Part shown: in pieces, positions 1-27,270 of the stretch
Layout of the letters: each line of letters opens with the position of its first letter
Position numbering within the stretch: the first letter of the stretch is position 1
Assembly (NCBI GenBank): GCA_003990765.1
Contig: RBNJ01000045.1
Coordinates: 1 to 47,603, forward strand
Reading direction: 5' to 3'
DNA: 47,603 nucleotides
Source: Jimgerdemannia flammicorona
Lineage: Eukaryota
Made by a program: the position numbers and the translations under genes
The notes under the pieces: generated by a model
What the model was told of the DNA's origin: nothing
Seen by the model: only the letters and a program-made list of their open reading frames with translations
The model's database searches: none

Positions 1-189
1 TTTTGTTTTTTTTTTTTTTTTTTTTTTTTGAGAAAAGGGAGTGTGGGGGTGTGGGGGTGTGGGGGTGTGCCCATATAACCTGGATTTTTACAAGGTTATT
101 TTGCTTTTTATTTTAATTTTTAGAAAGTAAAGAAAGATTAACATAAAGTGTAGTTATTAGATTTTTTGAATCAATAATAACAATATTGA

Positions 190-5017: not shown

Positions 5018-6350
5018 ATTCATGTTACACACACTTTTACAATATACTTTCAAGACATTTATTGGAGAAAGATACTAAGATCATAGCAACCAACATGTGA
5101 GCTGATATGCATGCTAGGTTGGGTGGACCTGGAGCCTTAGACTGGTATGTATATATTGGGTGAGGTTATGGATTAGGAATGGGGTCTTTAGGGGGTCTAA
5201 GTGGACAGGATAGTTTAGGCAGTAGTAGTGGCACTAGGGGAGAAGCAGGAGGGCAGAGGGGGAGAAGCTTTGCTGATATGCTGAAGACTGGAGGATGGCC
5301 TGTTGGATCTTGTGGTAGGCAGGTAGAGGGGAAGAGAAAGCAGAGGGAAGAAGAAGTGGGAGGTACAACACCTCAGCCAGTAGATGGCAGAGCTAGTGGA
5401 GCAGCAGCTAGGAGTAGAGAGGGGACTGCTGATGGTAGTATGACTGGGAATCTGGAAAAAAATCCAGATGTGACAGTTGATGATGGAGCTGGGCAGATGG
5501 GACCAAAGAGGAAGGGAGACCTGGCTGATGGTGTAATGGGGCTGGCAGTAGCACCATTACTCAAGAAGTTGATCTCAGAGTTTGCTGTGATCTTGAACTT
5601 CTGGGGCTTAGTAGTAATGGTGAGGATGGTCCTGATTATCTCAAAGCAGGTGGCTGGAGCTGCCTCAGTAAAGTTCCTGAAGAGATTAGAGGGGATTGAA
5701 GTGGGCTTTGAGGAGGCAGGCCCACTGAAAGAAGCATTGAAAACTGGAGTAGTAGTAGGAGAGGTAGTGGTCCCTATGGTATAGCGTTTGAGGTGGGACC
5801 CCAGAGTGGTTCAGTTACTTATAAAGAGGGTGTCTATGGTGACAAAGGTTGAGACTAAGAGGAGGGTGGAGGAGGTTATGGCAGAGTATGGTGATATAGT
5901 GGATATCAGATTCCAGATGTGGGAGGGGACTACTTTCAGGACAGAAGACATTGACATCAGGATTAGACTGGCTGGGAGGGAGGCTATGGGGAAGATGAGT
6001 AACTGGCCTTCAGTAATAATATAGGGGGCTTTCATCTATAAGGTGTCGAGGGTGAAAGGGAGTGAGGAGGAGGAGGAGGATTTGTTGAAGGCTCTGGAGG
6101 AGATGAGTGGAGTAGTAGAGGGTAAAGGCCTGGAAGTTGTATATAGAGTCAATATATTTGGAGATTGTAGATGGGAAATATATTCACACTGACAAGAGAC
6201 ACAAGAAGCAGAGAGAGTTGTTGGTGAGTATGGAAGGAGGGGTGAAAAAGAATACTGGGGGCACTGAGGAGTCTGGGGGTGTCAAAGCAAGTGTCTGAAT
6301 TAGTAAGAGAGGAGGGGATGTAGAGGAGGGTCTGGATAGAGCCAGGAAGA
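5018..6350 (+). mobile_element. L1/Tx1-like LINE 5' UTR plus ORF1 N-terminal fragment
   Basis: ORFs 5179-5784 and 5788-6024 (KGDLADGVMGLAVAPLLKK, RWDPRVVQL) are homologous to ORF1 of the full LINE at 43056-43505; starts ATTCATGTTACAC like the other copies. Confidence 0.85.
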
Positions 6351-6957: not shown

Positions 6958-8259
6958 GTTACCATTCAAAGAGTATATACTTATCTACTTTAGACTCAAA
7001 TTTGTCTCTATACTACTTTTATCTAGAATATAAGCCTCACTTCCAAATATCCATAGGTGTGAGATATCTAGCTTAGCTCTACTCTATAATTCCTCAGAAG
7101 TAAGATCACTATTATTTCTAGATTATTGATCATTCCTAGATTGTTAATTATTCCTGGATTATTAATTATTCCTAATTGATAATTGTGAGATCTGCTAGAT
7201 CTGCTGGAATCCTTACTTAGAGCTCAAGAAATACAATAATTTTGAGTATATACTACTGTATTCACTGCTTTGACTCAGAAGAAGTAGTAAGTCAGTCATA
7301 TTCATCATTGTTTGAGCTATCTCAACTACTATTTGATTAAAGTATTCCATTATACTATTTTATTCAGATAATAGAGAGCCATTATAGAGTATTGAATACT
7401 ATACTTTTTCAAAAAGTGTTTAAAGGCTTTGTTGATATATTTCTTGCCATTATCTGAGTATAGGGTCCATATCTTATATCTCATCTCATTCTCCATAGTT
7501 GTCTTAAATTCTCAGAATTATTCAAATATCTCATTCTTTACTATAAGGAAGTATGAATAGGCTTTATAAGTATAATTATTAATAAAAGTAATAAAATACT
7601 TCTTCCCAGAGTATATTACTGATGATATAGAGCTGTAGATATATATATATATTATGTTGAAAATGTTAGCTACTTGCTTTGTCTATTTCTGAAAAGATTA
7701 CTGAAAAGCCTTGTTTGCTATATATCTATTATAAAAGAAATTTAGTGATATATAGTCTAGTAATCATCTCATGTTCTAAGCTCATCTTACTGATGTGTCT
7801 TAAGCATTCATGCAATATGTGCCAGAGATCCTCTCTAATTATAACAGAATATACAGATAATATACCACTTAGTATACTATTAATTATATATAGGTTTCTC
7901 CTTTTTTAACATATATATTAGCTCCTTATTATTCTTTAGATTGATTCCCATTATACTGTTCAGTTATATATTTACTCCTTTATCTCCTTGAGTCATCTTT
8001 CAGCCTATTGAGAAGAGGTTCTTACTTATATCTATAGTATATAGTATATCTACAAAAGTGTCTAAGGATTCATCCACTTTCCTATGTAGATATATACTAA
8101 TATTATTCTTAAGATAACATTATTATTACCTAATTTGATAGATACAGAGTGCTTGAACTTCTCATATATAGAGAACTACTCATGATATACTATTATATAC
8201 TGTATTATATTGAAATCTATAAGCCAGACTTCTTCACTATATATATAAGTACTTGGTAT
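6958..8259 (-). mobile_element. Ty1/Copia remnant, protease-integrase part
   Basis: Minus translation: VWLIDF (protease WxIDSG-like, ~8215-8235); GKKYFITFINNYTYKAYSYFL...IWTLYSDNGKKY (integrase, ~7440-7620); FNQIVVEIAQTMM...KAVNTVVY (~7250-7345); very AT/TpA-rich. Confidence 0.85.
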
Positions 8260-8828
8260 TATAACATGCCCAGCTCAATTAAGGTGAATTATAAGGTTGG
8301 GGGTTGGTGTAGTTTGGCTTAAGCCCCCAGTTACTTTGTCAAAAAGCAATAAAATGTTCTAAGATTTCTGAGATCCTTGGTATTTAGTGGTATAATAGTT
8401 AATCTGAATATAATAGTCATTCCACTGATCACATAGTGGTTGATTTGTGTATTGGTTTCCTTATTGGGTTAACTGGGAATTGGTAGAATTTCATATATGG
8501 CATGAGTAGTTTCCTTCTTAAGTGATAGGTGATTTCTGTATAGCATGATAATCTCCTTATATATGATGGTCTGGTAATTTAGCAGTTTCCTTTCTGAGTG
8601 ATGGGTGATCTCTGTGTAGTGCTCTCAAATAAATTGAATCAATTCAAATTGAGTTTGAATCAAATCAAATTCAAATTAAATTGAGGGTCTGATTCAAAAC
8701 CTATTTTTAGAAATTCCAAATTCAATGGTCCTTAGCTTGTTAGATTCCCCTATATAAGAGGAATCTAACTAGCTAAAGATCATTGAATTTGGATGTGTAT
8801 TTGTTGAGTTATTTAATTTCTAAAAATA
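8076..8828 (+). repeat. Left copy of a ~750-bp direct duplication (Copia piece + Gypsy LTR start 8260-8616 + MITE start 8617-8828)
   Basis: Colinear with 17942-18693 from ACTTTCCTATGTAGAT to ATTTCTAAAAATA; differences seen are mostly transitions. Confidence 0.95.
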
Positions 8829-11800
8829 TTTTTATTTTTTTTTTATTATAAAATGAGTAGAGAATAGAGGAATAGTTTAGAGCAAGATGTGATGCTGTTA
8901 TGGTAGATATGAAAATTGGTAGTAAAAGGTCAAACAGTGAACAGAAAAAGCTTTTTGTGAATTTTCATAACAGAACAAGAAAACAGAATAAAGTGTTATC
9001 CGAAGCAAGGTGCAATAGATCTGCAACCTGCCCTCGGCACCACAGTACATGGCGGTCTTTATTCAAAAAAGAGAACAAAGTTCAGGTAAACAAAGATACA
9101 GACTAACCCCGGAATTCCAGAATTGGACAGGTGCATAAGTACCTAGACCTTGCCCTAATCCAAACAAAGGTCTGAATCAGACTTCATCGATCTACACACA
9201 TGACAGACTATTAAAAACCTGATATAGAAACAATCAGGAAAAGGTACTGGTCACGTGATATAATGTTACACAAACAATAAACAATGCTAAAAACGGAACT
9301 AGACCAATGATGTGTTATGTATTGTTACATAATTGTCACTTATAGGTTTAAAAACCTAAAAATTATCAGCACCCAAAGGCGTAGGTGTCAGGCCTAGAGC
9401 CTCATGACCAGAGCAGAGTAGAGCCTCAGCACTAGAGCGAGTGAAGCAAGTGGAGGTAGACAGGCATCACGGAGCATAGGTATGCAGGCGTCAGGCCTAG
9501 AGTCTTATGCCAGAGGTTGTTCAGCAATTTTTCATGTTTTTAAACATTGCACAGCATGTACAGGTGGTGCAGCCTTCATGGAGGACTTAGAGTGAAGTTG
9601 GTATTTGAGACGACATTAAGAATAGTAAAACCATTCTTCCGGATAATGATTGGTCATCAGGCGGTTGCAGGGAAACCAAAATGAAGCAAAGTGGTACATA
9701 GAGTCTTGTTGGGCTGTTGATGTAGCCATCAGGACATGTCGTATTGGACAACAAGCAATGGCAGAGTGGGGAATGGGGGGGTGGGGAATAAGGGGAGGGG
9801 TGAGAAGTGAAGTTTGGACCTCAAGCCAATCAACCAAACTCAATTGAGTGGTAATAACATCAATAGGGTATCCTTTCCTGTGAACCAGGAACTCGGCCAA
9901 AGACTGACACTCATCAAGCCAATCATGGTGAGATGAGCAGAGTAGTGAAAGGCAGTGGGCCTCATTCATAATACATAGATGGAGTGTCTTCCTAGGATGA
10001 TTGCTCAACCAGTTGACAAACTGAGTACTATGTGGAAACTTGGCAAAACAGCCTGTGCAGAACAGTGTGACTTGGATTTCCAGGTCTAAGTAATGGCATG
10101 GTCTGGCAGACAAGACTTCCCATTCGATATGATGGTGCAGAGGGTACATAGCACTAAAGATCAAGGCCAAGTCCATAATCACAGGTGTAAAGATGATAAG
10201 ATTGTCAATATACTGGCAGAACTTTAGCCTGGCAGTGATAGCTTGGCTGAGCAGATGATCAGGTACTTGTAAGGCATACACAACTCATGAGCAAAGCCAA
10301 CCAGATTGGCAAGATCCAGAGCACAATTAGTGCCCATAGCAATACCAGTCATGGAGCAGAAGGAACCAATGGCAGATGTGAATGTCATATGAGTCATAAC
10401 TATGTTAACAAGGCCAAGAATGGCTTCAAGCAATAAAGAGCCAGGGGGGAAGGCCACCATCGACAAAAAAGTGAGGCAGTCGATGTACTCATCAAGTGTG
10501 ATCCTGGTGTAAAAGGTGGCAAAATCCCCAGTAGTAATGTAGTTGTAATCTCACATGTCAAGGTAATCCAATCAAACCAATTATAACAGTTCTAACATAT
10601 CATGTAGAGGTGAATAATGTGAATAACCCACATTATGGCACAGATGGGCTGACCACAGGTGGAGAAAGCAAGATAGGAAACGTGAAATCTCAGTTATGGG
10701 AGAGTTAAATGTACCAATGATAGGACACCATGCTATATGAGCCCCTTTGTATACCTTGGGCAAAGCATGAAACATGGGCAGCTTACAATCATTGGGCTCT
10801 ATGAGGTGTTCCAAAATCAGTATACAACTCCAGTCGCTGATACAGAACTCGAGTAGACCAAGCAGGTCTAGCCTCACTGATTTCTTAACATTATCAATCA
10901 TAGAGAAATCATTCACGTATGTAGGATTGTGAAGGAGGGACCAAAGACCATCTAGATATAGAGTGCGCGGAATTACGGCGAACCCCAGATTTTTGTTAGT
11001 AAGATAGATAGTAAAGTCATCATGAGTGCAGATGCCTTTGAGAAGGTGACAGAACTTCTTTGGTATAAGTGCACCAGATACATTCGTCATAGGTCGGATG
11101 GCTTGATTTAATGCGGCACTCATATGAAGCATAATTTGCATATTTTCCATATACTGTGGCAGTCGCTATTTAGATGGCACCCAGGCAGAGATCTCTGGAA
11201 CATCATCAGAATTACCCATAAAGGTCCAGAAGGTGGTAAGGTCAAGGCATCATTGGAACGATGATAATGAAATCGGATCAATGGTACTATTCATTGAAGC
11301 TGACCTGGGGAGAACAAACTTAGGGCCAAAGTTCAGCATATACATGAGCTCGGGAGTAAGCCAAGGTGGAGATATATCAGTAACAAAGCCCTCCTCAGTA
11401 AACATCTGAAACCAAGAGATGAAAAACTGACTTAAGCGAGAACTGGGAAGAGAAGATATAAAGGCAAAATTCTCAATTGGTGTCGAGGCCACTACCCCAC
11501 ATAGAATGGGGACATCAGGGCCAAACCACACTATCGGGAAGTCATATAAGACTTCCGGGCCAGGGACCTCTAGTTTTTTGATGCTAGAGGACAGATGTCG
11601 CCAGTATTATGTCAGACGATATGATGTTTGGCAGCAGTATACTTGTTGCACTGCAGCACAAATGCTCTGGTAGTGCTCTTAGATGAGCAGCTCAAAGTTG
11701 ATGAGTGGCTGGTCCCAGTGGAAGCAGAAGAAATAGACAGAGAAGGCGAAGCCTTACATATTTGCTTGACCCCTTTTACAGAACCCACTGTCTTGGCAGG

Positions 11801-13248
11801 GGCTAGGGGGCAAGGACCCCAGTGGGCCTTCATAGGCACACTGAGGCATCCAGAACAGCTATGGCAGTTCGGCATAGCAGAGGCTGAAGTTGCACTCACC
11901 ACCATCACCTTTCCCACAGCCCCTGCAGGCATGGCAGAATTGGGTCAGAGAGTGGGGACACTCTTTTTCGGTCATGTGGAACCAGCAGCAGCAGAAGCAA
12001 ACATGCATTTCACACCCAGAGTAATGATCTCAGGGCACTTCTTAAGCTCCTCAATCACGGCTTTGCAGGTGGTAGTGGAGATCCCATCTTGCAGGAAGGA
12101 GGACACAGGGACAGTCAGGCAGACTGTGGTGGCAGCAGCTTTAGCAGTGGCAGTGGCGGCAAGATGGCAAGATTGATGCATGACAATATCAAAACCATGG
12201 AGCAGAAACAAGGTCATCTTGGCTCGGTCAGTAGTAGTGAGGGTAGCAATATTCTTACCAGCCCCTTGTGAGACATCAGTAGAGACACCAAAAAAGTTAT
12301 AGGGCTCCATCGATGCTTGCATGGCTTTGTCAATTTTAGCATACTAGTTCTTAGCATACTGGGTGGCAGTGATATTAGTAGTCATAGCAGCCTCAACCAT
12401 GGCCATGGTGCAGCGCTTGGCTTCTGCTGAAGCAGTAGCAAGGGTGGCATCACACTGCTCCTCAAGAAGGAGGGCAATCATAGCAGCTACCTTCTTGGAA
12501 GGAGTAAACTTCCAGTTGGCAACTTGGGCCTTCAAAAAATTGGCACAGTGTTCCTTCGCAGCAACGACTTCAAGGACAGAAAGCACTCTGGTGCAAGCAG
12601 TATAGAAGTAAGCAGGGACCTCGGCAGATGCAGTGGTGACATAGGCTGCCAGATTGTCAAACTATACCAAACTTGCGAAGGAAGCAGGGGGGATGGCAGC
12701 ATCGCCATCTACATTCATATTGTCTGTCATGTTGTGTATTATAAAACAAGTAGAGAATAGAGGAATAGTTTAGAGCAAGATGTGATGCTGTTACAGCGGA
12801 TATGAAGATCAGTAGTAAAAGGTCAAATAGTGAACAGAAAAAGCTTTTTGTGAATTTTCATGATAGAATAAGGAAATGGAATAAAGTGTTTTCTGAAGCA
12901 AGGTGCAATAGATCTGCAACCTGCCCTCAGCACTACAGTATGTGGTGGTCTTTATTCAAAAAAGAGAACAAAGTTCAGGTAAACAAAGATATGGATCTAA
13001 CCCCAGAATTCCAGAATTGGACAGGTGCATAAGTACCCAGACCTTGTCCCGATCCAAACAAAGGTCTGAATTGGGCTTCATCAATCTACACACATGATGG
13101 GCCATTAAAAACCTGATATAGAAACAATTGGGAAAAGGTACCGGTCACGTGATCTAATGTTACACAAACAATAAACAATGCTAAAAACGGAACTAGACTA
13201 ATGACATATCATGTATTGTTATGTGATTATTACTTATAGGTTTAAAAA
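8829..13248 (-). mobile_element. Penelope-like retroelement copy A (ORF1 + RT, no endonuclease seen), poly(A) at left end, ~510-bp 5' pseudo-LTR
   Basis: RT motifs TNKNLGFAVI, KLPMFHALPKVYK..WCPII, TGIAMGTNCALDLANL, FCQYIDNLIIF, HYLDLEI, SNHP; T-tract ~8829-8844; 12737-13248 repeats the 3' end (~8845-9355); ORF1 ATG at 12730. Confidence 0.85.
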
Positions 13249-16200
13249 CATCATTTCCTTGTTCTATCATGAAAATTCACAAAAAGCTTTTTCTGTTCAC
13301 TGTTGACCTTTTACCGCCAATCTTCATATCTGCTGTAACAGCATCACATCTTGCTCTAAACTATTCCTCTATTCTCTACTCGTTTTATAATATACAACAT
13401 GACAGACAATATGAATATAGATGGCGATACTGCTGTCCCCCCTACTTCCTTCATCAGTTTGGCAGAGTTTGACAACCTGGCAGCCTATATCACCGCTGTG
13501 TCTACCGAGATCCCCACTTACTTCCATGCTACTTGCACTGGAGTGCTTTCTGCCCTTGAAGTCATCACCATGAAGGAACACCATGCTGATTTTTTAAAGG
13601 CCCAAGTTGCTGACTGGAAGTTTACTCCTTCCAAGAAGGTAGCTGCTATGATCGCCCTCCTTCCTGAGGAGCAGTATGATGCTGCCCTTGCTACTGCTTC
13701 AGCAGAAGCCAAGTGCCATGCCATGGCTATGGTTGAGGCTGCTATGACTACTAATGTTGCCACCGCCCAGTATGCTAAGGACCAGCATGCTAAAATTGAC
13801 AAAGCCATGCAAGTGTCAACAGAGGCCTATAACTTTTTTGGTATCTCTACTGATATCTCGCAAGGGGCTGGGAAGAATATTGCTACCCTCGCTGCCACCA
13901 ACTGAGCCAAGATGACCTTGTTTCTGCTCTATGGTTTTGACATTGTCATGTGTCAATCTCGCCATCTTGCCACTACCACCACTGCTAAAGCTGCTGCCAC
14001 CACAGTCTGTCTGACTGTCTCTGCATCCTCCTCTCTGCAAGATGGGATCTCTGCCGCTGCCCACAAAGCCATGGTTGAGGAGCTTGAGAAGCGCCCAGAG
14101 ATCATTACTCCGGGTGCAAAATGCACATTTGCTTCTGCTGCTGCCAGTTCCGCCCAACTGAAAAAGAGTGTCCCCACTCCCCGACCTGATTCCGCTGTGC
14201 CTATGGGGGCTGTGGAAAAGGCAAAGGTGGTGAGCGCGACTTCGGCCTCTGCTGCGCTGAACTGCCATAGCTGTTCTGGATGTCTCAGTGTACCTATAAA
14301 GGCCCACTGAGGTCCTTGTCCCCTAGCCCCTGCTGAGATAATGGGTTCTGTAAAAGGGATCAAGCGAGTACATAAGGCTTTGCCTTCCCCGTCTGTTTCT
14401 TCTGCTTCCACTAAGACCAGCCACTCATTGACTTCGAGCTGCTCATCTAAGAGCACCACCAGAGTGTTTGTGTCGCAGTGCAACAAGTGTACTGCCATCA
14501 AACATCATGTTGTCTGGCATAATGCCAGTGACATCTGAGTCCTCTAGCATTAAAAAACTAGAGGTCCCTGGCCCGGAAGTCTTATATGACTTCCCAGCAG
14601 CATGGTTTGGCCCTGATGTCCCCATTCCACATGGGGTAGTGGCCTCAACACCAATTGAGGATTTTGCCTTCATGTCTTCTCTTCCTGATTCTCACTTAAG
14701 TCAGTTTTTCGTCCCTCAGTTTCAGATGTTTACTGAGGAGGGCTTTGTTACCAATATACCTCCACCTTGGCTTACTTCCGAGCTCACATATATGCTGAAC
14801 TTTGGCCCTAAGTTTGTTCTCCCTGAGTCAGCTTTGATGAATAGTACTATTGATCTGATTTCATTGTTGTCATTCCAATGGCGCCTCAACCTTGCCACCT
14901 TCTGGACCTCTATGGGTAATCCTGATGACATTCTGGAGATCTCTGCCTGAGTGCCATCTAAATGGCGACCACTGCATTATATGGAAAATATGCAAATTAT
15001 GCTTCATATGAGTGCTGCATTAAATCAAGCCATCCAACCCATAATGAATGTGTCTGGCGCGCTTATACTGAAGAAGTTCTGTCACCTTCTCAAAGACATC
15101 TGCACTCATGATGACTTTACTGTCTGTCTTACTGACAAAAATCTGGGGTTCACCATAATTCTATGTGCTCTGTATTTAGACAGTCTTTAGTCCCTCCTTC
15201 ACAATCCTGTGTACATGAATGATTTCTCTATGATTGATAATGTTAAGGAATCAGTGAGGCTAGACCTGCTTGGTCTACTCGAGTTCTGTATCGGCAACCG
15301 GAGTTATATGCCGATTTGAGAATACCTCATAGAGCCCAATGATTGCAAGCTATCCATATTTCATGCTTTGCCCAAGGTACACAAAGGGGCTTACATAGCA
15401 TGGTGCCCTATCATTGGTATATTTAACTCTCCCATGACTGAGATTTTGCATTTCCTATCTCACTTTCTCTATCTGTAGTTGGCCCATCTGTGCCATAATA
15501 TGGGTTATTCGCATTATTTACCTCTATGTGATATGTTAGAACTATTACAATTGGTTCAATCAGATTACCTTGATATGTCAGATTGCAACTATGTCGCTAC
15601 TAGGAATTTTGCCACCTTCTACACTAGGATTACACTTGATGAGTGTATTGACTGTCTCACTTTTTTGTCAATGGTGGCCTTCCCCCCTAGCTCTTTGCCA
15701 TTCTCGGCCTTGTCCGCATAGTCATGACTCATACAATGTTCACATCTGCCATCGGTTCCTTCCACTCTATGACTGGTATTGCTATGGGTACTAATTGTGC
15801 TCTGGATCTTGCCAATCTGGTTGGCTTTGCTCATGAGTTATATACCTTACAAGCACCCAATCATCTGCTCAGCTGAGCCATCACTACTGGGCTAAAGTTC
15901 CACTGGTATATTGATGATCTTATCATCTTATGCCCATAATTATGGACTTGGCCTCAATATTTGGTGCCGTGTACCCTCTGCACCATCGTATCGAATGAGA
16001 AGTCTTGTCCGCCAGACCGTGCCATTACTTAGACCTGGAAATCTGAGTTACACCATTCTACACAAGCTGTTTTGCCAAGTTTCTGCATAGTACTCAGTTT
16101 GTCGACTGGTTGAGCAATCATCCTAGGAAGATGTTCCATCTATATATTGTGAATAAGGCCTGCTGCCTTTTGCTACTCTGCTCATCTTACCGTGATTGGC

Positions 16201-17942
16201 TTGATAAGTATCAGTCTTTAGCTGAGTTCCTGGTTTACAGAAAAGGATACTCTATTGATGTTGTTATCACTTAATTGAGTTTGATTGATTGGCTTGAGGT
16301 CCAAACTTCACTTCTCACCCCTCCCCTTATTCTCCACCCCCCCATTCCCCACTCTGCTTTTCCTCTCCCATTGCTTGTCATCCAATATGACATGGCCTGA
16401 TAGCTACATCAACAGTCTGACAAGACTCTACATACCGCTTTGCTTTGTTTTGGTTTCCCTGTGACTGCCCGACAACCAATCATCACCTGAAAGAATGGTT
16501 TTACCATTCTTAATGCCATCTCAAATACTAGCTTCACTCTAAGTCCTCTATGAAGGCCGCACCACTCGTACGTGCTGTGCAATGTTTAAAAACATGAAAA
16601 ATCACCAGACAACCTCCAGTGTGAGGCTCTAGGCCTGACACCTGTGTACCTATACTCCATGACACCTGTCTACCTCCACTCACTTTGCTTGCTCTGGTGC
16701 CAAGGCTCTACTCTACTCTAGTTGCAATGCTCTAGGCCTGATGCCTGCACCTTTAGGTGCCGACAATTTTTAGGTTTTTAAACCTATAAGTGACAATCAT
16801 GTGACAATACATGACACATCATTGGTCTAGTTCCATTTTTAGCATCGTTTATTGTTTGTGTAACATTAGATCATGTGACTGGTACCTTTTCCCGATTGTT
16901 TCTATATCGGGTTTTTAATGGCCTATCACATGTATATAGTGCTCCGAACGAGTCAATCTGGATGGGATTCGGATGGATTTGAATCGGATTTGAATCGGAT
17001 TCGAATCGGATTCGAATCGGATTCGAATCGGATTCGAATCAACCATTGTTTTGATTTCCAAATTAGACAATTAAATGTTTACATCAATAACTTGATGAAT
17101 AATCATCCAAATTTGATGATCTTGGTGTCATTTGAAAGCCCTTAATAAGGCCTTTCTAATGATACCAAGAATATTAAAATCGGATTACATGTTGCCAAGA
17201 TATTAAGGAAAACGTTCCATTTGACGAAATTTCCAAAATCGGCAAATCAAAGAATTTCCAAAATCGGCGATTCAGACATTTTCCTTCATAACTCAGCAAC
17301 GCATGATCCGAATTCAATGTTCTTGGTATCATTAGATAGGCCTTATTAAGGGCTTTCAAATGACACCAAGATCATCAAATTTGGATGTAAACATTTAGTT
17401 GTCTAATTTGGAAATCAAAACAATGGTTGATTCGAATCCAATTCGAATCCGATTCGAATCCAATTCGAATCCATCCGGATGGGATTCGAATCCCATCTGA
17501 GTTGATCCAGATGGGATTCAATCCGAATCAATCCGAATCCAATCCAGATTAAATTGACTCGTTAGGAGCACTATATGTGTAGATTGATAAAGCCTGATTC
17601 AGACCTTTGTTTGGATCAGGGCAAGGCCCAGGTACTTATGCACCTGTCTGATTCCAGAATTCCGGGGTTAGATCTGTGTCTTTGTTTATCGGAACTTTGT
17701 TCTCTTTTTTAAATAAAGACCGCCATGTACTGTGGTGCCAAGGGTGGGTTGCAGATCTATTGCACCTTACTTTGGAAAACACTTTATTCCATTTCCTTGT
17801 TCCATTATAAAAATTCACAAAAAGCTTTTTCTATTCACTGTTTGACCTTTTACCACCGATCTTCATATCCACCATAACAGTTTCACATTTCGCTCTAAAC
17901 TATTCCTCTATTTTCTACTCATTTTATAATAAAAAAAAAAAA
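13249..17942 (+). mobile_element. Penelope-like retroelement copy B (ORF1 13399-14538, RT ~14540-16590), ~140-bp 5' pseudo-LTR, poly(A) tail
   Basis: Inverted homologue of copy A; TDKNLG, GIAMGTNCALDLANL, WYIDDL (15904-15921); ~13252-13391 repeats ~17790-17930; A-tract 17931-17942. Confidence 0.85.
16937..17573. mobile_element. hAT-family foldback MITE (637 bp) inserted in the 3' UTR of PLE copy B
   Basis: TIRs TAGTGCTCCGAACGAGTCAAT / ATTGACTCGTTAGGAGCACTA; degenerate 8-bp TSD CATGTATA/TATGTGTA; empty site (TGTGTGTA once) in the homologous sequence at ~9195 and ~13090; GATTCGAATC subterminal arrays. Confidence 0.92.
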
Positions 17943-18693
17943 CTTTCCTATGTAGATATATACTGATATTGTTCTTAAGATAACATTATTGTCACCTAAT
18001 TTGATAGATACAGGGTGCTTGAACTTCTCATATATAGAGAACTACTCATGATATACTATTATATACTGTATTATATTGAAATCTATAAGTCAGACTTCTT
18101 CACTATATATATAAGTACTTGGTATTGTAACATGCCCAGCTCAATTAAGGTGAATTATAAGATTGGAGGTTGGTGTAGTTTGTCTTAAGCCCCCAGTTAC
18201 TTTGTCGAAAAGCAATAAAATGTTCTAAGATTTCTGAGGTCCTTGGTGTTTAGTGGTATAATAGTTAATCTGAATATAATAGTTATTCCACTGATCATAT
18301 AGTGGTTGATTTGTGTATTGGTTTCCTTATTGGGTCAACTGGGAATTGGTAGAATTTCATATGTGGTATGAGCAGTTTCCTTCTTAAGTAATAGGTGATT
18401 TCTGTATAGCATGATGATCTCCTTATATATGATGGTCTGATAATTTAGCAGTTTCCTTTCTGAGTGATGAGTGATCTCTGTATAGTGCTCTCAAATGAAT
18501 CAAATCAATTCAAATTGAGTTTGAATCGAATCAAATTCAAATTAAATTGAGGATCTGATTCAAAACCTATTTTTAGGAATTCCAAATTCAATGGTCCTTA
18601 GCTTGTTAGATTCCCCTATATAAGAGAAATCTAACTAGCTAAAGATCATTAAATTTGGATATGTATTTGTTGAGTTATTTAATTTCTAAAAAT
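17942..18693 (+). repeat. Right copy of the ~750-bp direct duplication
   Basis: Matches 8076-8828; only this copy continues into the rest of the MITE and LTR. Confidence 0.95.
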
Positions 18694-19728
18694 AGAGTTC
18701 GAATCAGACCTCAAATTGAATTGGGCCTCAATTCAATTCATTGGGAGCACTATCTCTATGTGATGATCTCTGTATAGCATAATGATCTCCAAAAGTATGC
18801 AATTTCTGGATAACTCAATTTGGTGTGGATTCTCCTCAATCAGGCTCATTGAGAACAAACTAATAACTTGGGTGGTGCATATTCTTCTTACTGGGAATGA
18901 TACTGATGGCAGATTCTTCTTACTGGGGAATGGATAACTCAGATATGGATAATTTAGATAACTCAGATAACTTGAATGTCATAGATTCTTTCTGAATCAG
19001 TGAGGTTCTCTAGGAATGCAGATAACTTCAAAAATGGTGGATTCAACTGGAAAATATAACTGGCAGCTTTGGGAAAGGGTCTTTTGGCAAAGTTGCATCA
19101 AAGACTGGCTTTGTTTATGCAAATGGATTTACTGTGAAGTTGTATCAGAAACTGGCTTAAGCAAGGTGGCTTTCTCTTAGGCAGCAGAAAGGCAGAAATC
19201 TTCAGGCTTATTTGGCAAGCAAACCAATAGTACAGCTTATTCCTTAAGTGGTGGGTTTCTCTTCAAAAGGCAGCAAAGTTCTCCTTGAACTTGATAGTAA
19301 ACTTTAAGCTTATCTGGCAAGTGAACCAAGGCTTTGTATTGGAAAGTAGACCAGAGTGGAAAGGGGACCAATGCTCAATCTTTATAGGCTTCTTTGGTAT
19401 TTGTATTTCAGACTGAGGTTTATTCACTCTTATCTCTAGGGTAATTTATACATTGTGGTTACTATCTGGTTGCTATATAGCTAACTATAGATTTACTACT
19501 TCTGGTAATATTTGGATGTATCCTCTGAGTACAGATGTGTCTACCAGATGTAGGTGTATCCTCTGGACACAAGTAAACAACCCTGGTGTAGTATCCTGTC
19601 TAATTATAGGTATGGCGGGCATGAGTAACTATGATATACTGAAAGTCACATCATGCTAGCTAAGTATGCTAATTGTTTGCATCATCTGGCTAAGCTATTA
19701 TTTGGGTGATACATTTTGGTTTATTATA
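18126..19728 (-). repeat. 3' LTR of the dUTPase Gypsy (contains a MITE)
   Basis: TGTAAC...TTATTATA, homologous to 27271-28481; adjacent purine-rich tract (minus strand TTTAGTGGGGGCTGA, 19729-19743). Confidence 0.92.
18483..18752. mobile_element. hAT-family MITE (270 bp)
   Basis: TIRs TAGTGCTCTC / GGGAGCACTA; degenerate 8-bp TSD TCTCTGTA/TCTCTATG; absent from the other LTR (single TCTCTGTA at ~27620). Confidence 0.92.
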
Positions 19729-22700
19729 TCAGCCCCCACTAAAGGATGGTCTGTCCTCAGACTATCCTTTAGTCATTATTTCAATATATATAAGCATTTT
19801 CTGCATCAATATCTGTTCCATTATCTTTGTTGTCTGTACTAGAGTCACTCTATTCTAAAGGCTCCTCTTCTTCTTCAGGAAATAAAATTTCAACTTGGTG
19901 GATAATACTGAGATAGGTGGGCTGGGTCATTCTTTAGAGATCATTCAGAGAGAACTGGGCCTGGACTAGAGCTGAATGGTTTCATTTGTAGATTGTATAT
20001 AATCTTTCTGCAGTAGTAGAATTCTTTCTGTTTAGGCCAGTAGTGTTGCAGACATAGACTAGGTCTGAGAGGAGAAGATTCTGCAATTGTTCTCCAATTG
20101 CATAGTATGCCTGCAGCTGGTGGACCTGGAGTAGTCTCTCAGCCAGGGTGAGGCTTTCTTAGTGAACTCAGATTTTCTGAAGATATATTCCATTCGGTTC
20201 TTGGAACTGTAGCAGGGGATCTGGTAGGGCTTAAAGAGAACTGAGGACAGGGATCTGGAGGCAGTTGTCAATTCTCTAGTTCATGGTATGGGGAAAGATA
20301 TATCTTGAGGCAGTTGGTGTATACTGATGTCCTCAGGGTTCATCCATCCATACTTCTTAAATAGATACTGGTTCCTCTGATATTGTGTACAAGATAGGGT
20401 CCTTCCCACTTGGGCTCCAGTTTGGCAGTAAAATTCATCTCAATCATGCTTTTCTAAACTAGTACTTGATCTCCAATCTTGATCTCCTGATCCTTCTGCT
20501 TCTGGTCATAGTACTTCTTTTGTCTTTCTTGGGCTTTGATAATCTGAACTCAGGCCTGATTATGTAAATATTCTGCCTTCTTGAGATTCTCATGGTCAGC
20601 AGTTCTCGTCTTTTTGGCAAATATCATTTCGAATGGCTTTTGTTTGGTAGAGGCAGCAGGGGTATTCTGAATTTCCCATAGGATCTCAGGTAAGCAGAGG
20701 TCCCAGTTGATAGGATTGACTCAGGTAAGTCCTTTCTTGATAGTCTGGTTCATTCTTTCTATCATACCATTGGTCTGGGGGTGGTATAATGTGGTCCATT
20801 TGAGGTGGATCTTGTGAACTTGTGCATAACTTGTGATTATGTTGTTGCTGAATTCTGAGCCTCAGTCAGAGATGAGTTCTTCTGGAGGTCCATATCTGAG
20901 TGCGAGTCCATAGAGAAGGCCTACAATAGATAAGGCATCTGCAATTTCCATTGGGAAAGTCTTGGGCCACTTGGTCAGATATTCTACAAATATAAGGATA
21001 TACTTGTTTCTTCTTGGTGTAACTGGTAGAGGTTCAATTACATCTACTCCCTATCTCTGAAAGATGTTGTCTGGTGGTGTGATTGGTTGCAATGGTGCTT
21101 GGTAGTTCTTCCTTCCTTAGTACTTCTGGCAGGTGTCACATTTCTTAAGTATATTCTGGACTTGTGTTCTGAGGTTGGACCAATGTTGGTATATTATTTG
21201 CAGCTTCTCTTCTATATTTGCCTGTCCTTGATAAGCTTTCTGATATTCTTTTTGAATGAGATCTTCTTGTACCTTGATGGTCTGGGGAGCTTCCTTTAGG
21301 GTATAGTTCCTCAGAACACCCTTCTTCTGGTTTATTGGAGTTGGCAGGAAAGTACATCAACATTGTTGTGAGCTTTCTCTGCCTTGTGGATGATTGTGAT
21401 TTTGTAATCCTGAAGGATAAGGATCAAGTAGGCCAGGATTCTAGTAGGTTCCTTATAGTTGAATAGCCATTTGAGGGCCAAATGATCAGTTATCAGAGTG
21501 AACCTTTTTCTGATAAGGTAGTGTTTGAACAGGGTAACCACCCATATGACTGCAAGGCATTCCAATTTGGTGCTGCCATAATTCATCTGCTGCTGATTGG
21601 TAGCTCAGCTTGTATAAGCTATCATACGGTGTTAATGATCAGGTCCTTCTTGGGCTAGAACTACTTCCAGGCCATCTTTGGAAGCATCTGTGTTCAAGAT
21701 GAATAGCTTCTGTAGATTTGGGTGGATGAGGATTGGTACTGTAGTCATGCCATTCTTGAGTTCCTTGAAGGCTTTTTCTTATGACTCTGTCCATTTATTA
21801 GATACTCCTTTCTTGAGAAAGATTTGAATTAGGGCAGCAATTTGGACAAAGTCCTTGATAAACCTTCTGTAGTAGGATACTAGCATCAGGAATGATAGTG
21901 TTTCCTTCAGAGTCTTGGGAACTGGCCAATTATTAATCTTTATTTTCTTTGAGTCTGCATGGATTCCTTCTTTTGAAACTATAAATCTAAGGAATTCAAG
22001 TTTCTGTTTCCCAAAGTAGCATTTCTTAGTATTGAGTCTCAGGTGGTTCTTGTAGGTGAGCTTGAAGAATTCTTCTAGGTAGTGCAGACATTCTTTGAAA
22101 TTTGCTGAATAGATGTTAGAATCATCTATATATACAATCAGACAGTAGTAGATCAGGGGGATATAGACTGAATTCATCATCCTCTGGAAGGTGGGGGGTG
22201 TATTGCAAATTCCAAAGGGCATTTGGAGATATTCAAACAGTTTTCCTAAGCAAGGAAGGCTGTCTTTTGAATGGATCTCATGGAATCCTGCGAAAAGGTC
22301 CATACTGCTGAAGTATCTGACATCTTGTTACTGGTCCAAAAGGTCATCGATTCTTGGCAAAGGATAGGCATCCTTTTCAGTGACTGAATTGAGCTTCCTG
22401 TAATCTATACAGAGTCTCCATCCTCCTTTCTTTGGTACAATAAGTATAGGGCTGGCCCAAGGGCTGGCCCAAGGGCTGGTTGAGGGTTGGATGACTCTAT
22501 TGTCAAAGAGTTCTTGTATGTGCTCCTTTTCGAATATCTTTAGATGATGGGGTATTCTACAGGATTTCTGCCAGATGAGTGTTGCATTTCCTGTATTTAT
22601 ACTGTGGTGATATAATGAATTATATAGCAGATTGCCATAGTCTGTGGTGAAGATATCTTGATTTTTTTGAGGAGTTCTACTAGTTGTTGCCATTGCTGAG

Positions 22701-23144
22701 GTGTCAATTCCTCTCCAATGTTGGTGGAAGGCTTCACTGTCTCCTAGATTGCAGAGGGGCCTTTCCTTTCTTCCGGGACCTTTTGCTGTTTTCTGATAGG
22801 TTTAGCTCATAAACTTCTCTATGAGTTCAATTGAGAAAAGATGCGAGGTGTCCTATGATGGTTCCTTTAGACAGGATGATGGTTTCCCAACTTTGATTGG
22901 TTGCTCAGGAATGTACTGGGTTTATCTTATCAGAGAATATGTGTCCTTCAATGTCCAAGTGTGGGATATCTTCATTGGGTTCAAAGAAGAGGTTTCTGGG
23001 GTCAGGTGGTGCAAAGATTTCGAAGGTGGTTTGTTCTCCAGGCTCTAGGATCAGATTCTTGTACAGTTTAACTAATTGGTGGTGCACTTGCTGAGGAATA
23101 TTCCTCTTGAGATGATTGATCTGAAGGAGGTGTACTTCTTTCTT

Positions 23145-23535
23145 ATCTGAGCTTCCAAATCCTTTAGCTTGTCTTGTTCCTTCAGTCGGTTCAGAGACTT
23201 CTTGTAATTGTGGGGTCTTGACCTTCATGAAGACTGCTTGAGTAATCTTCTGTCCTCTTATGATTCAGTGCCATTCTGTGCTGCTGTTGTGCAGGATGAC
23301 CTTAATTTCGCCTGTATATCCTGGGTCAATAGTTCCTCCTTCCACAGTTATTCCTTGTCTGGCAAGTCCAGACCTTGAGGTTAGTTGAATATAAGTTCCT
23401 TGAGGTGGCTACATGGCTAGTCTGGTTCTAATCATAAATGTTTTTCCAGGCTTGATGGATTCATTCTCTAGACTGTGAAGGTCAAACCCTATATCTTCTG
23501 GGTGAGCTTTGGTCAGGGGTTTGGCTTTTGGATAT
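23145..23535 (-). pseudogene. Trimeric-type dUTPase domain within the Gypsy pol
   Basis: All five motifs readable in one frame: DIGFDLHS, LTSRSGLA, GGTIDPGYTGEIKVILHN, GQKITQAV, TRQAKGFGSS; two in-frame stops. Confidence 0.93.
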
Positions 23536-26500
23536 AGCAGGGAATACTGAGCAATATCCTTACTGAGTTCAGGTTGTCCTTGAGCTGAAGCTCCACTAGC
23601 AGAGAGTCTCCAGGCTCTGAGGTTGAGGTGTAGCCATCTGGCTCTGGTAGAGGGGTCTTGGAGATAGCTGATTCCTCTTTTTTCTGTAGGATCTAGGGCT
23701 TCCATGAAGTTGGTAGCATCTTCTACCTATCCTTGGTAGGTTGCATATCTGGTGAGAGCTAGGATGTATTCTCCTAGATCATAGATCTTGAGGATCCTTC
23801 TTTCTGGCTTCTTGGTCTGGCTTTTTCGAATTTGGCCTTTGTTATCTCCTCTTTTCAGAGTGTGGATTACAACATCATAACTGAGGTGAATCTTCTGATG
23901 TCTACAGTATTGGCAATCTAGATGTCTTCCATAGTTACAATATCCCATTGCTCAAAAATGCTGTTTCCGGTTGTTGATCTCTTGTTGTTTTGGAAATCGG
24001 TATCCATCTTAGTCATATGTTAGTGGCAGAGTAGATAAGAGATATACTTCTGTTCAGGTGAAGAGACCTTGTCCTCTGAATTGACTTTGCAACTTTGTGA
24101 TGACTTCTTGGAAGGTAGTTGATAGTGTAACTATTGTTGGAGATTCCATTCTTTAGGGTCTCTGTCTTTCTTGTTAGTCTATCAGATAGCACTGGTAGCA
24201 GTAGTCTCTGGGAGAGTAGAAGACTATTTGGTGTAGACATCTTCCTAGCTGAAAGGCTCTTTCTTGGTGAGTTTCTTTCTTGGGAATAATGGAGATTGTA
24301 TTGGGTCCTTCTTCTATATTCCAGGGGTCATTATCTTCAGGTGGTGTCTAGCAAGAGTTATTCCAGGGAATAAGTTTGGAGACTTCTTCTTCTTTAGGTA
24401 CTTCTTGTTCAGGGACCTCCTGTTCAGGGATTTCTTCTTCCTCAGATGATTCTTGACCCCAAATTGCTTGTACTTCTGCAGCTTTGGCTGCAGGTGTCTC
24501 TGAAACATATCTACATTTCTTCTTTTTTCTTCTGCACTTAGGGCAGGCTGTGCCAGGCGATTTCCTTGCTCCCATGATCTTGGAAGAATGCTCGGGGCAC
24601 TTGTGTCTTTTGAGACAGGTGGGGCATCCTTTTATTTCTCCTACAATGGCTCCAATGGTGATGGGGATAGTACTCTGGGCCCACACATTGTCTTCTGGTC
24701 TGTCATCCACCAGGTTGATTCAGAGATTGAGTCTGGGGTCATTTCCATCTTTGGATTCTTCCTCTTCTTCTGTAGTAGATTCTTCACTACTGACATATTC
24801 TTCCTGGATGGTCACCTTCTTCTTCTTCTTCGATTGCTCATAGCTGGTCATCTTAACCCTGTACTTCTTGTCTCGGCAGTCAAACCTGAGTACTTATTGA
24901 CTGATATCAATAACTGCATTCATTTCTTTCATTCAGTTGGTGCCAAGGATCATGTCATAGATGACAGCTATGGTGATAATAGCTTTTGGGATAGAGAATT
25001 GAATGTGTCCAAGAGAGATGGTGATATTTTGTACTTCTCTAAGGGGTTGAGTTCAGGCTCCATCTGCTACTATAATACTGGGATTAGATGGTCCATCAAT
25101 AGGCCATTGGAGGGTATCCAGGAATCGTTTGGCAATGATACAGATAGCTGCTCCTGTGTCTATGAGGATTTTCACCGTTTGTCCTCCAATATCTCCATGT
25201 AGATAAGTGCTGCCATATCTTTCTGTAGCTTGAATAGGTGTAGGAACTGGCTCTTGCTGTGGGATGGGGACCCAACCAGTGCTAGACCTGGTGGTCCTCA
25301 GTAATTTGTTTTGGACTCTAGCTGGTGTCAATTACAAAAACTATAGGAGAGGAACTTCCATCTTAGCTTCTTGAATCTTCTGCCAGGCTTCATTGTAGAT
25401 ATCCCTGGGTATGATCTTTGGGGCATACTTCTTCTTGGGCTTTGAGATAGCAGGTTTCCATTCTTTTTGTTCCATTTCTTCATCCTCTGGTGGTAACTCA
25501 TTTGTCTTGGGAACAAAGGGTGAGGGAGTTCGAGAAGATATTTCTACTTACTCTTTCATGTTCTTCATCTTCTTCTTAAACAATTCTTCTGCTGATATTC
25601 CTGGATGGCCTTCCTATAGGTCCCTTCCTTTTCTCTGCTGGGTAGACTGTTTTTTGGGTACTGACTTTGGCTGGGTAAGGTCTAGGTCACTGTAGTCCTC
25701 ACTGTTGCTTTCTTCTTCAAAGTCTTCAACAGGATGGGCTTCAGTCTTCTTGTACTGGGTTTCATTTCTTCAATTTGGTGGTTCTGAATCCCTTTGGTAA
25801 CTTCTTTTATTGTCACACTCAGTGACAAAGTATCTGAATTGTCTACAGTGAAAGCATTGGACTTGGGCTTTATCTCAGACAAGATATCTTCTTTCTTCTT
25901 GCTGGTAGTTCCTGTTATCTCTTAGTGGATAACCTTGGCTCCTTTGTGGTGAATATCCTCTGTTATCTTGATAACTCCAATTTTTATATATGGTAAGTTT
26001 TTCAATCTGTCCAACCAATTGGTCCAACTTGGAGCTCAGGTCTTGGATTTCATTCCTGTCCTTCTTTTTTTCTTTGGCTGTCCTTCTTCTTCAGATCTCT
26101 CTTATCCTTGAAGGAGTCCTTGTAGGACTTTGACCAGGATGTCTTCTTTATCATCTTTCTTGTCATGGTCACTCCAGGTAGTTCCTTGTCTGACATCAAA
26201 GAATCCTTGGGCTACATCTACTTGTTCTTCAGATCTTCTGATACCTAGGGTGTGGACATGCTGGGCAATGTTTAGGGGAATTCCATTCATGAAGGTCATT
26301 GGTCCTATGATGCCTTGATTGGTAGCATTGAACCCAGCTTAATGCATTCTCTTCCGGATTCTTGTGAAGAATGCTCTGAGTGATTCATCTTCATCTCCAT
26401 GATGGATTCTTGAGCCTTGTGGCAGGTTTCATTTCCTGCATATTTTTTGATGAGCCAGTGGACCATGGCTACATATTCTAGCTTATAGGCTACTGCTGCT

Positions 26501-27251
26501 TGTATTTCTATTGCTAGTTGTGAATTTGGATCATTTGCTGTTCAGTGAAAAATTCCTCTGACTGGTTCTCTGAGCTGGGCCTTATAGATGGTGATTTTTC
26601 TTTCATCTGAGAGATTCCTCAGAGCTGTAATTTCTTCAATTCTATCAAGGAATTCTCTGGGGTCTTCTTCCAGATATCTAGTAAACGTTAGCAGTGAGGT
26701 GACCATTTCTTTGTCACTTTCTTCTGATTCTGATTCTGGTCCAGATTCTGATTCAGACTCTGATTCTGATTCACTTTCTGAGCTATCACTGGAGGTAGGA
26801 GTGCTTGGATATCTTGAGGATAGTGTTCTGGACCTTGGATGAAATAGAATAAGCCTAGGTATTCTTGAAGAAGCTGCTTCTAGTTCTGCAAGGGCTGGTG
26901 GTAAAGGTTTGATGGGTGAGACTGGTGGGGTCTCTCTGGGATATCTGACTGCTGGATACTGGGCTTGTATAATGAGGTCTTCTAGTTTATGTACAAGTTC
27001 TTCAAAGTTTTGAACAGGGCCACCTAAGTTGTCTGATTGATCTGATTGAGGATTTCAGACTATACTGGTTTCTGATTGGGATTCTTCTAAAGCTGAATAA
27101 TTGGTAGCTCTTGAGGTAATTACTTCTCTTTCTGTCCAAATGCTGGTGATGACTAGTTTCCCTATAGTAGCAGAGATTGCTATTGTATCAAATGTATTCA
27201 GTTTGACTGTGGGTTCTTATGAGCTGAAAAATCATATTGATTTTGAAATCT

Positions 27252-27270
27252 TCCCAGTTGAGCCCCAAAA
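27252..27270 (-). promoter_or_regulatory. Primer-binding site, tRNA-Pro-like
   Basis: Minus strand TTTTGGGGCTCAACTGGGA immediately inside the 5' LTR; resembles the canonical Pro PBS TGGGGGCTCGTCCGGGAT; tRNA identity is an inference. Confidence 0.6.

Follow-up and report, generated by a model that had tools for sequence, protein, structure and literature searches.

How Penelope-like elements (PLEs) that lack an endonuclease (EN) enter the interior of chromosomes is an open point, and a locus in Jimgerdemannia flammicorona (Eukaryota) bears on it. The DNA analyzed here, referred to as the window, comprises positions 1–47,603 of the forward strand of contig RBNJ01000045.1 (NCBI GenBank assembly GCA_003990765.1), and it contains no N. 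Within it, two decayed copies of a PLE, designated A and B, lie head to head between two direct copies of a 753-bp segment, each element ending outward in a poly(A) tail. The element carries a reverse transcriptase (RT) assigned to the PLE family and no nuclease domain that could be detected, and the arms and the flanking duplication are equally diverged when mutation is compared in like sequence contexts. The reading favored here, and regarded as probable, is one compound event, in which two target 3′-OH ends 753 nt apart would have primed synthesis of complementary DNA (cDNA), the cDNAs would have been joined end to end, and fill-in would have produced the duplication.

Anatomy of the Locus

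The locus is bracketed by a direct repeat of 753 bp (8076–8828 and 17942–18694), which was aligned by self-BLAST and a repeat finder without gaps and at 95.6% identity, with 720 matches, 32 transitions, and 1 transversion. The segment is 30% GC and contains only three recognizable ancestral CpGs. Its right edge at 18694 falls inside an insert of ~276 bp (~18487–18762) that resembles a miniature inverted-repeat transposable element (MITE). Repeat search, self-BLAST, and alignment found only the left part of this insert in copy 1, as its last ~208 bp (~8621–8828), after which the tail of element A begins, whereas copy 2 runs unbroken into the remainder of the insert and an LTR-like repeat (long terminal repeat, LTR). 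Because the MITE-like insert spans the right edge and is complete only after copy 2, copy 1 is a truncated copy of a once-contiguous segment and not one member of a chance repeat pair; this layout therefore rules out unequal crossing-over between flanking elements and chance juxtaposition of repeats. The LTR-like repeat (18126–19726, minus strand) has a partner at 27271–28479 with 85–86% identity and, as judged by self-BLAST and open reading frames (ORFs), bounds a decayed Ty3/Gypsy element. The first ~570 bp of this repeat were overlapped by the target of the event, and the partner, a third and older copy of the LTR-like sequence, is without the MITE-like insert. The nesting indicates that the Gypsy element arrived first, the MITE second, and the head-to-head insertion last.

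The ~9.1 kb between the flank copies form an imperfect palindrome, the arms of which are 85–90% complementary according to the repeat finder and self-BLAST. The main pairing, of 9193–12878 with 16936–13252, stands at 85.8%, and further arms extend it to 8835/17940. Element A (8829–13249, minus strand), delimited by repeat search and broken ORFs, consists of a tail, a 3′ pseudo-LTR, an ORF region, and 518 bp of upstream pseudo-LTR. Its tail appears on the plus strand as a T-tract of 16 nt (8829–8844), which reads A10-T-A5 on the minus strand. The 3′ pseudo-LTR (8839–9355, minus strand) is repeated with 89.7% identity at the 5′ end of the element as the upstream pseudo-LTR (12732–13249, minus strand), and the latter terminates at the head-to-head junction. 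The coding region (9616–12731, minus strand), in which an N-terminal part, the DKN motif, RT motifs, and thumb were located from ORFs and alignment, is disrupted by stops and by four frameshifting indels relative to B; a 222-aa piece at 9616–10284 contains YIDN (RT motif C) and a thumb-like region. Element B (13252–17942, plus strand) begins with a 146-bp remnant of the upstream pseudo-LTR (13252–13397, 88% identical to 17790–17936), which is followed by the coding region (13399–16505, plus strand, its end approximate), as defined by translations and alignment, by an interrupted 3′ pseudo-LTR, and by an A12 tail (17931–17942, plus strand), the last base of which can be assigned to the tail or to the duplication. 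The interruption is a second MITE-like insertion of ~636 bp (16937–17572), which probably arrived after the event, since A has no counterpart at that place.

The boundaries of the elements are sharply defined. Copy 1 terminates in ...TTTCTAAAAATA at 8828, next to which stand TTTTTATTTTTTTTTT and, after it, the element's 3′ end in reverse complement; B terminates in ...TTTTATAAT followed by A12, to which copy 2 is directly adjoined. The tails are not derived from the target, because the T-tract is absent after the matching end of copy 2 and the A12 tract is absent before copy 1. Runs of at least 10 A or T residues occur six times in the whole window, and two of the six are the tails. Both arms terminate at the same position of the pseudo-LTR, beyond which the A-runs begin. 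From the tail to the upstream repeat, with the whole ORF included, the arms measure ~4.4 kb (A) and ~4.05 kb (B, minus the later MITE), and they share ~4 kb. At the junction itself (13250–13251), 1–2 extra bases are predicted by the template of neither arm, in comparison with 9355–9358 and 17786–17790, and the junction contains no palindrome, features that resemble end joining. Neither a second copy of the element nor one of the A|B junction was found in the window by self-BLAST. The original prediction, made from the sequence alone, had described a ~750-bp direct duplication bracketing both elements, a ~9-kb imperfect palindrome, outward poly(A) tails at the edges of the duplication, and a 5′-to-5′ meeting at ~13248/13249 with unequal truncation of the pseudo-LTRs. 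All four features were recovered, the meeting point being refined to 13249/13252, with 518 versus 146 bp of pseudo-LTR kept, and the tracts of 16 and 12 nt abutting the edges.

Assignment to the Penelope-Like Elements

Recognition of the element proceeded from P0001, a 431-aa read-through of copy B (14432–15724) in which stops were written as X. This translation contains TDKNLG, LPKVHK..W.PII, and RT motif A, with GIAMGTN and WYIDDL lying in another frame. No Pfam family was found on the broken ORF pieces or on P0001, and the RT was recognized only via relatives identified with phmmer. A phmmer search of P0001 against 1.84 billion representative proteins gave 16 matches at E ≤ 1e-3. The top match, P0003 (7432 aa, matched in 34 short stretches), was set aside as spurious, being an immunoglobulin-repeat protein of archaeal origin, but the matches that followed were genuine, with 69% identity over 78 aa and 26% over residues 118–419. 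Common to the relatives and the window copy are TDKNLG, LPKVHK..WRPI, D..S.YTN, GIAMGTN, RYIDDI, FLD, and S.HP...RGY, in which the thumb ends RGY. Individual motifs, including TDKNLG, GIAMGTN, and RYIDDI, are ones that we take to be typical of PLEs. The set “DKN, RT 1-7 and thumb” is described as typical of PLEs, with reference to Arkhipova 2006, in PMC13159263. Pfam RVT_1 was reached by 4 of 15 relatives, and none of these 15, nor any of a set of 7, had GIY-YIG. Among the relatives, a single one is named, a partial protein from the glomeromycete Racocetra fulgida. A profile search of the family against the PDB returned generic RTs (best 8bgj, E 9e-7) and no match to telomerase.

The link to canonical PLEs came from metagenomes. 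P0001 alone gave no match in the metagenome scan, and a scan with a smaller alignment of five relatives (A2) gave 257 distant relatives, with 80 loci being kept (L001–L080). In the ORFs of 20 relatives, which were chosen by the authors from 26 computed, out of the 80 loci, RVT_1 was found in 7 and GIY-YIG at the C-terminus in 1 (L075, E 1e-5, above the Pfam cut-off). The family profile A1 was aligned with the L075 ORF over 394 columns (hhalign probability 99.9%, E 3.9e-35). Because this ORF has the canonical PLE architecture, RT plus C-terminal GIY-YIG, the alignment identifies the window element as a PLE. Terminal direct repeats of the pseudo-LTR type are present in both A (89.7%) and B (88%). 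Other searches were less productive: the 222-aa thumb piece of A had no homologue in a protein search for longer relatives, a homologue search with profile A1 gave, among the matches listed, only P0018, and the ESM Atlas yielded clusters with HTH_animal in 30–39% of members (score 0.94), which serve as a lead only.

Pfam scans of 20 ORF pieces, of 10 pieces with a threshold of E ≤ 10, of all three frames downstream of each copy's thumb, and of the N-terminal 380 aa of B detected no nuclease domain; the N-terminal region of A was covered by the scan as ORF pieces. The claim that this element has no visible nuclease is thereby upheld at the sensitivity of Pfam, for the ORF pieces and for the frames downstream of the thumb in both copies. 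The surroundings are those of a chromosome interior: the window contained 0 matches to two TTAGGG units with ≤1 mismatch, TTAGGG being assumed for the host, and transposable element (TE) sequence reaches at least 8 kb to either side of the locus.

Two further observations concern this family and its relatives. Upstream of the RT frame in B, a frame of ~380 codons (13399–14540, plus strand) is broken by two stops only. Cys/His clusters (CHSCSGC...H..C; CNKC) are found in it, and it may represent a gag-like ORF1 of its own, such as nuclease-less PLEs with two ORFs have; its sole Pfam match is a weak zinc-ribbon (E 0.19). Of the 80 metagenome contigs with distant RT relatives, ~38 have the same 90–530 bp at start and end (self-BLAST, counted from printed rows), as would be expected for tandem element arrays or for circular assembly. 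Inverted repeats occur in only 2 of the 80 (L011 and L020), and in L001 direct repeats of 645 bp surround the ORF. These contigs, which are short and contain relatives only 23–32% identical, say little about insertions of the window family.

Relative Age of the Arms and the Duplication

The raw divergence of A and B is 12.8% and that of the flank copies is 4.4%. A divergence of the arms greatly exceeding that of the flanks had been named in the original prediction as evidence against a common origin, and on raw numbers there is such an excess, but it vanishes after correction for CpG. The A/B alignment contains 517 mismatches in 4025 sites, consisting of 497 transitions and 20 transversions, and 297 of the 517 lie at ancestral CpGs. 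Ancestral CpG sites now appear as TG/CA (99), as lost in one copy (89), as CG/TA (5), or as kept (9). These counts are consistent with independent loss at 0.81 per copy (chi-square p = 0.59), so both arms began with intact CpGs and decayed after their separation. The preference of the process is for CpG (~81% lost per copy), followed by CpA (~20%), CpC (~13%), and CpT (~2%). A strong excess of transitions over transversions is seen in the repeat pairs of the window (497:20 for A/B, 32:1 for the flanks, 109:7 for the LTR pair, and 50:4 for another), with one less extreme ratio of 122:40. The spectrum appears compatible with mutation resembling repeat-induced point mutation (RIP) or with methylation-driven deamination. 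An assignment to classical CpA RIP was dropped, as 198 of the 329 transitions first attributed to CpA proved to be TG/CA pairs, in which an ancestral CpG had mutated on opposite strands.

Since hypermutation is directed to CpG first, raw divergence depends strongly on CpG content, and the excess of A/B over the flanks is an effect of that content, because the AT-rich flank has nearly no CpG and the rates outside CpG are equal. Transitions in flank versus A/B are 18/96 versus 128/576 at CpA (p = 0.51), 10/50 versus 47/374 at CpC (p = 0.18), and 0/90 versus 12/500 at CpT (p = 0.23). When all non-CpG transitions are pooled, the counts are 28/236 versus 187/1450 (p = 0.75); the A/B rates predict 29.8 such events in the flank, and 28 were observed. 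Transversions number 1/753 versus 20/4025 (p = 0.23). The comparison has the power to resolve a difference in age, because at CpA the older LTR-like pair, with 47/123, shows significantly greater divergence than the flank (p = 0.0018) and than A/B (p = 0.00035). The two terminal repeats of A itself stand at 13/66 at CpA, the same rate. The arms and the flank duplication thus appear to be equally old, as far as can be judged from 28 informative flank sites and from a process that possibly does not run like a clock. When hypermutation is CpG- or repeat-directed, raw divergence misdates threefold if AT-rich flanks are set against GC-rich elements.

A Probable Two-Ended Route of Insertion

The site proposed for the event is interior and AT-rich and falls in part within an old Gypsy LTR into which a MITE had earlier inserted. 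Two DNA 3′-OH ends would have been available there, 753 nt apart: that of the top strand at the segment's right edge and that of the bottom strand at its left edge. Because of the anatomy of the locus, the 3′ ends required as primers are those of the top strand at 8828 and the bottom strand at 17942. On the top strand, the order of flank, T-tract, and antisense element is that expected of cDNA primed from the 3′ end of the flank, and the same holds for the bottom strand at 17942. In polarity this would match ordinary target-primed reverse transcription, the offset of 753 nt being very wide. Each end is proposed to have primed cDNA synthesis on the poly(A) end of RNA from the same PLE family, probably on two RNA molecules, possibly within one dimeric ribonucleoprotein. 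Two templates, or one template used twice, are needed because the arms overlap by ~4 kb, which is impossible in a single pass over one RNA. Synthesis of both cDNAs would have crossed the complete ORF and reached the upstream pseudo-LTR, end joining would have united the 3′ ends of the cDNAs with the 1–2 extra bases, and fill-in of the two 753-nt single-stranded stretches would have produced the long target-site duplication. As the element encodes no recognizable nuclease, the ends were most likely lesions made by the host, such as distant nicks on opposite strands or an intermediate of replication or repair. Afterwards, all of the duplicated parts would have decayed together through transition-biased mutation directed at CpG and CpA. 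The original prediction had proposed that both 3′-OH ends were extended by reverse transcription and then joined. That core stood up to each test applied here and is retained as the best-supported reading, which we hold to be probable, while the separate RNAs, the staggered break, and the broken or re-replicated fork that it named can only be inferred.

Several points weigh against this reconstruction. It comes from a single locus in one assembled contig, and the opening of a 753-bp duplex between two nicks has no explanation in it. There is almost no complementarity between the primers and poly(A), since the flank terminates in ...AAAAATA and the second primer in a single T. The apparent absence of a nuclease holds at Pfam sensitivity only and for heavily mutated sequence. 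No hammerhead ribozyme was found in the pseudo-LTRs by Rfam (E ≤ 1, 7000–20000), in repeats that have lost ~80% of their CpGs per copy; some PLE clades are described as being without this motif (PMC8557442). Mutation here seems to be directed at repeats and may not follow a clock. Equal context-specific rates are consistent with, but no proof of, equal age, and only 28 informative non-CpG events are available in the flank. Finally, A and B differ by ~11 small indels and the flank copies by none, which may reflect non-identical templates or chance.

Alternatively, the two primed ends may have belonged to different duplexes (sister chromatids, homologues, or the two ends of one break, each extended on a sister) that ended 753 bp apart, were healed by the element, and were then joined to each other head to head. 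This version predicts an identical anatomy and again equal ages, without a 753-bp duplex having to be unwound, and nuclease-less PLEs are described as attaching to exposed chromosome ends (PMC8557442, PMC13159263). However, the window has no telomeric repeats, and the 3′ end of the element is poly(A) and is not complementary to telomeres. Nothing in the sequence separates the single-duplex and two-molecule versions; the latter is considered unlikely, and that the structure arose in a single event of either kind is held with good confidence. A DNA-level origin is improbable. In this case, a nascent strand ending at 8828 would have copied a pre-existing dimer by template switching or microhomology-mediated break-induced replication (MMBIR), returned 753 bp upstream, and copied the segment again. 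Replicative template switching does yield insertions flanked by duplications, A/T tracts could be used as switch points, and donor loci may exist, head-to-head dimers being a normal product of PLE insertion (PMC8557442). Both switch points would nevertheless have to coincide exactly with the outer ends of the tails, and no second copy of the element or of its junction is present in the window.

Two other explanations were weighed. Assembly error, through a chimeric join or a mis-resolved repeat, deserves consideration because the tandem and inverted structures of PLEs are said to trouble assembly (PMC8557442), but it is very improbable here. The flank copies differ by 32 transitions and 1 transversion, and because this peculiar spectrum matches those of the other repeat pairs in the window, they are old genomic paralogues and not one sequence written twice. 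Arms that differ by 13% would not be merged or mistaken for one another, the sequence is free of N and of gaps, and a fold-back chimera would have inverted the flanks, which are direct. Insertion of A and B at different times, with a later rearrangement duplicating the 753 bp, draws on the threefold higher raw divergence of A/B (12.8%) relative to the flanks (4.4%), yet that gap is the CpG-content effect, the context-specific rates being equal. Unequal crossing-over should also have left outer copies and a hybrid in the same orientation, neither of which is present, and downstream of copy 2 the MITE and LTR continue without the element. For an insertion to hit the very junction of a tandem duplication already present, a coincidence on the order of one in tens of thousands would be needed, and the chance that should be given to independent insertions is accordingly minimal.

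Comparison With Other Retroelements

The symmetry of the proposed two-ended insertion has precedents among PLEs that carry a nuclease. In these elements, an inverted copy truncated at its 5′ end is “often found” beside the upstream pseudo-LTR (PMC8557442), and “the most frequently observed” arrangement is head to head, with duplications of 8–10 bp in examples from Adineta vaga (PMC3846280). When purified, the protein of one PLE cut both strands of the target and extended them, and dimerization is predicted for it (PMC11167929). The canonical EN-bearing PLEs (Penelope/Poseidon, Neptune, and Naiad) have the same RT core, repeats of the pseudo-LTR type, and the same head-to-head arrangement as the window. 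They differ from it in carrying GIY-YIG, which was not detected by Pfam in the window element, and in having one short inverted pseudo-LTR where the window has two arms near full length. Canonical PLEs start their cDNA internally and possess a “tail” of 30–40 bp, whereas the window arms end in poly(A), and no hammerhead motif was detected in the window element. The duplication of 753 bp also stands against the 8–10 bp of the Adineta vaga PLEs (PMC3846280).

The EN-deficient PLEs, Coprina of fungi and Athena of rotifers, share with the window element the absence of a nuclease domain and a DKN-RT-thumb protein. The host is also probably a fungus, as judged from the mutation spectrum and the relative named in Racocetra fulgida. 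Coprina-1_Alen, like the window element, has direct terminal repeats (PMC13159263). The EN-deficient PLEs are described at chromosome ends (PMC8557442, PMC13159263), and Coprina and Athena sit there by telomeric repeats, whereas the window element is interior, has a poly(A) end, and has no telomeric repeat within 47.6 kb. In addition, the EN-deficient PLEs of fungi and protists are stated not to share the direct/inverted repeat organization (PMC3846280), which is, however, present in the window element.

Long duplications and two-tailed inversions are known from the human long interspersed element L1. Target duplications of >100 bp accompany <10% of L1 events in HeLa cells, but in repair-deficient cells the duplications have a median of 1495 bp and a maximum of 5.3 kb, which was explained by “a more distal unrelated nick” (PMC5223499). 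These insertions have the same geometry as the window, with a distant second 3′ end and an interval duplicated by fill-in. L1 makes its own first nick with an endonuclease of the apurinic/apyrimidinic (AP) type and uses one RNA, leaving one tail, whereas the window has two tails and no detected nuclease; moreover, the L1 cases come from cultured human cells and the window holds a fixed genomic copy. In tumor rearrangements (“bridges”), two synchronous, 5′-truncated inverted L1s are joined at their 5′ breakpoints, each with poly(dA) (10.1101/2024.08.27.596794), and in a model of L1 expression, RT products of opposite orientation are united by end joining (PMC11702581). These bridges belong to another element class, and their primed ends lie megabases apart or on different chromosomes, giving inversions or translocations, in contrast to ends 753 nt apart that gave a simple insertion at one locus. 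In L1 twin priming, as proposed for the window, both target strands prime reverse transcription and the product contains an inversion. Twin priming, however, uses one RNA with an internal second primer and leaves one tail, and it was rejected for the window because each arm starts from the poly(A) end and the two span a common ~4 kb of the element.

The original prediction had stated that ordinary target-site duplications reach tens of bp at most and that L1 twin priming uses one RNA and leaves one tail. Novelty framed in this way is not supported, as head-to-head PLEs, kilobase-scale L1 duplications, and two-tailed inverted L1 pairs precede it. Every ingredient therefore has a precedent, and what appears to be new and unusual is that a nuclease-less PLE combines them at an interior site and with poly(A) ends. 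No PLE insertion with a target duplication of hundreds of bp was found in the literature searched, although the supplements of PMC8557442 and PMC3846280 may list lengths.

Other Elements in the Window

The foldback inserts of the MITE-like type at 16937–17572 and ~18487–18762 and the partial one at 8621–8828 have related termini (TAGTGCTC... / ...GAGCACTA) and internal tandem units of the GATTCGAATCC type. The insert in the 3′ pseudo-LTR of B is bordered by ATGTATA and ATGTGTA, possibly a 7-bp target duplication. Their hairpins gave only weak matches to plant and animal miRNA families in Rfam, all below the gathering scores. The decayed Ty3/Gypsy element (18126–28479, minus strand) contains an RT at 21779–22801, a gag-like ORF at 26542–27054, and LTR-like ends that are 85–86% identical. 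The best database relative of its RT piece is 59% identical, and because this is the closest one available, the host lineage is considered to be poorly represented in databases.

An inverted repeat pair (5415–6252 and 42695–43561), with 76–80% identity and 122 transitions to 40 transversions, is separated by 37 kb. It overlaps long ORFs on both strands (5164–5810 and 43056–43743) and is probably another old TE family. Fragments that we take, from their translations only, to be hAT-transposase-like and of a non-LTR (LINE-like) RT lie at 36467–36877 and 39979–40446 (both minus strand), and a T16 run at 38105–38120 could be the tail of the putative LINE. The start of the window (1–69) consists of a T-run at 6–29 followed by four GGGGGTGT units.

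Implications for Nuclease-Less Penelope-Like Elements

The locus is single, old, and decayed, yet its footprint is clean. It offers a concrete and datable case in which the symmetric two-ended architecture of PLE insertion was kept while the priming ends lay 753 nt apart instead of ~10 nt, a wide offset that would be expected if the host rather than the element supplied the ends. A more general proposal is that nuclease-less PLEs use such a route regularly to enter chromosome interiors, with a dimeric RT-RNA particle capturing two pre-existing 3′ ends at a stalled, over-replicated, or broken site, extending both, and sealing the lesion. This generalization is tentative and at present rather doubtful. 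If it is true, the route would leave behind elements paired head to head, with poly(A) tails pointing outward and hundreds of bases of duplicated target, the locus described here would be the footprint of RT-mediated repair of a fork or break in a germline that is probably fungal, and the source of the 3′-OH primers of nuclease-less PLEs away from telomeres would be explained. Should the pattern recur in the same genome, the integration of PLEs would be tied to intermediates of replication and repair, and the sealing of breaks by reverse transcription, known from L1 in human cells, would extend to another class of retroelement and another kingdom.

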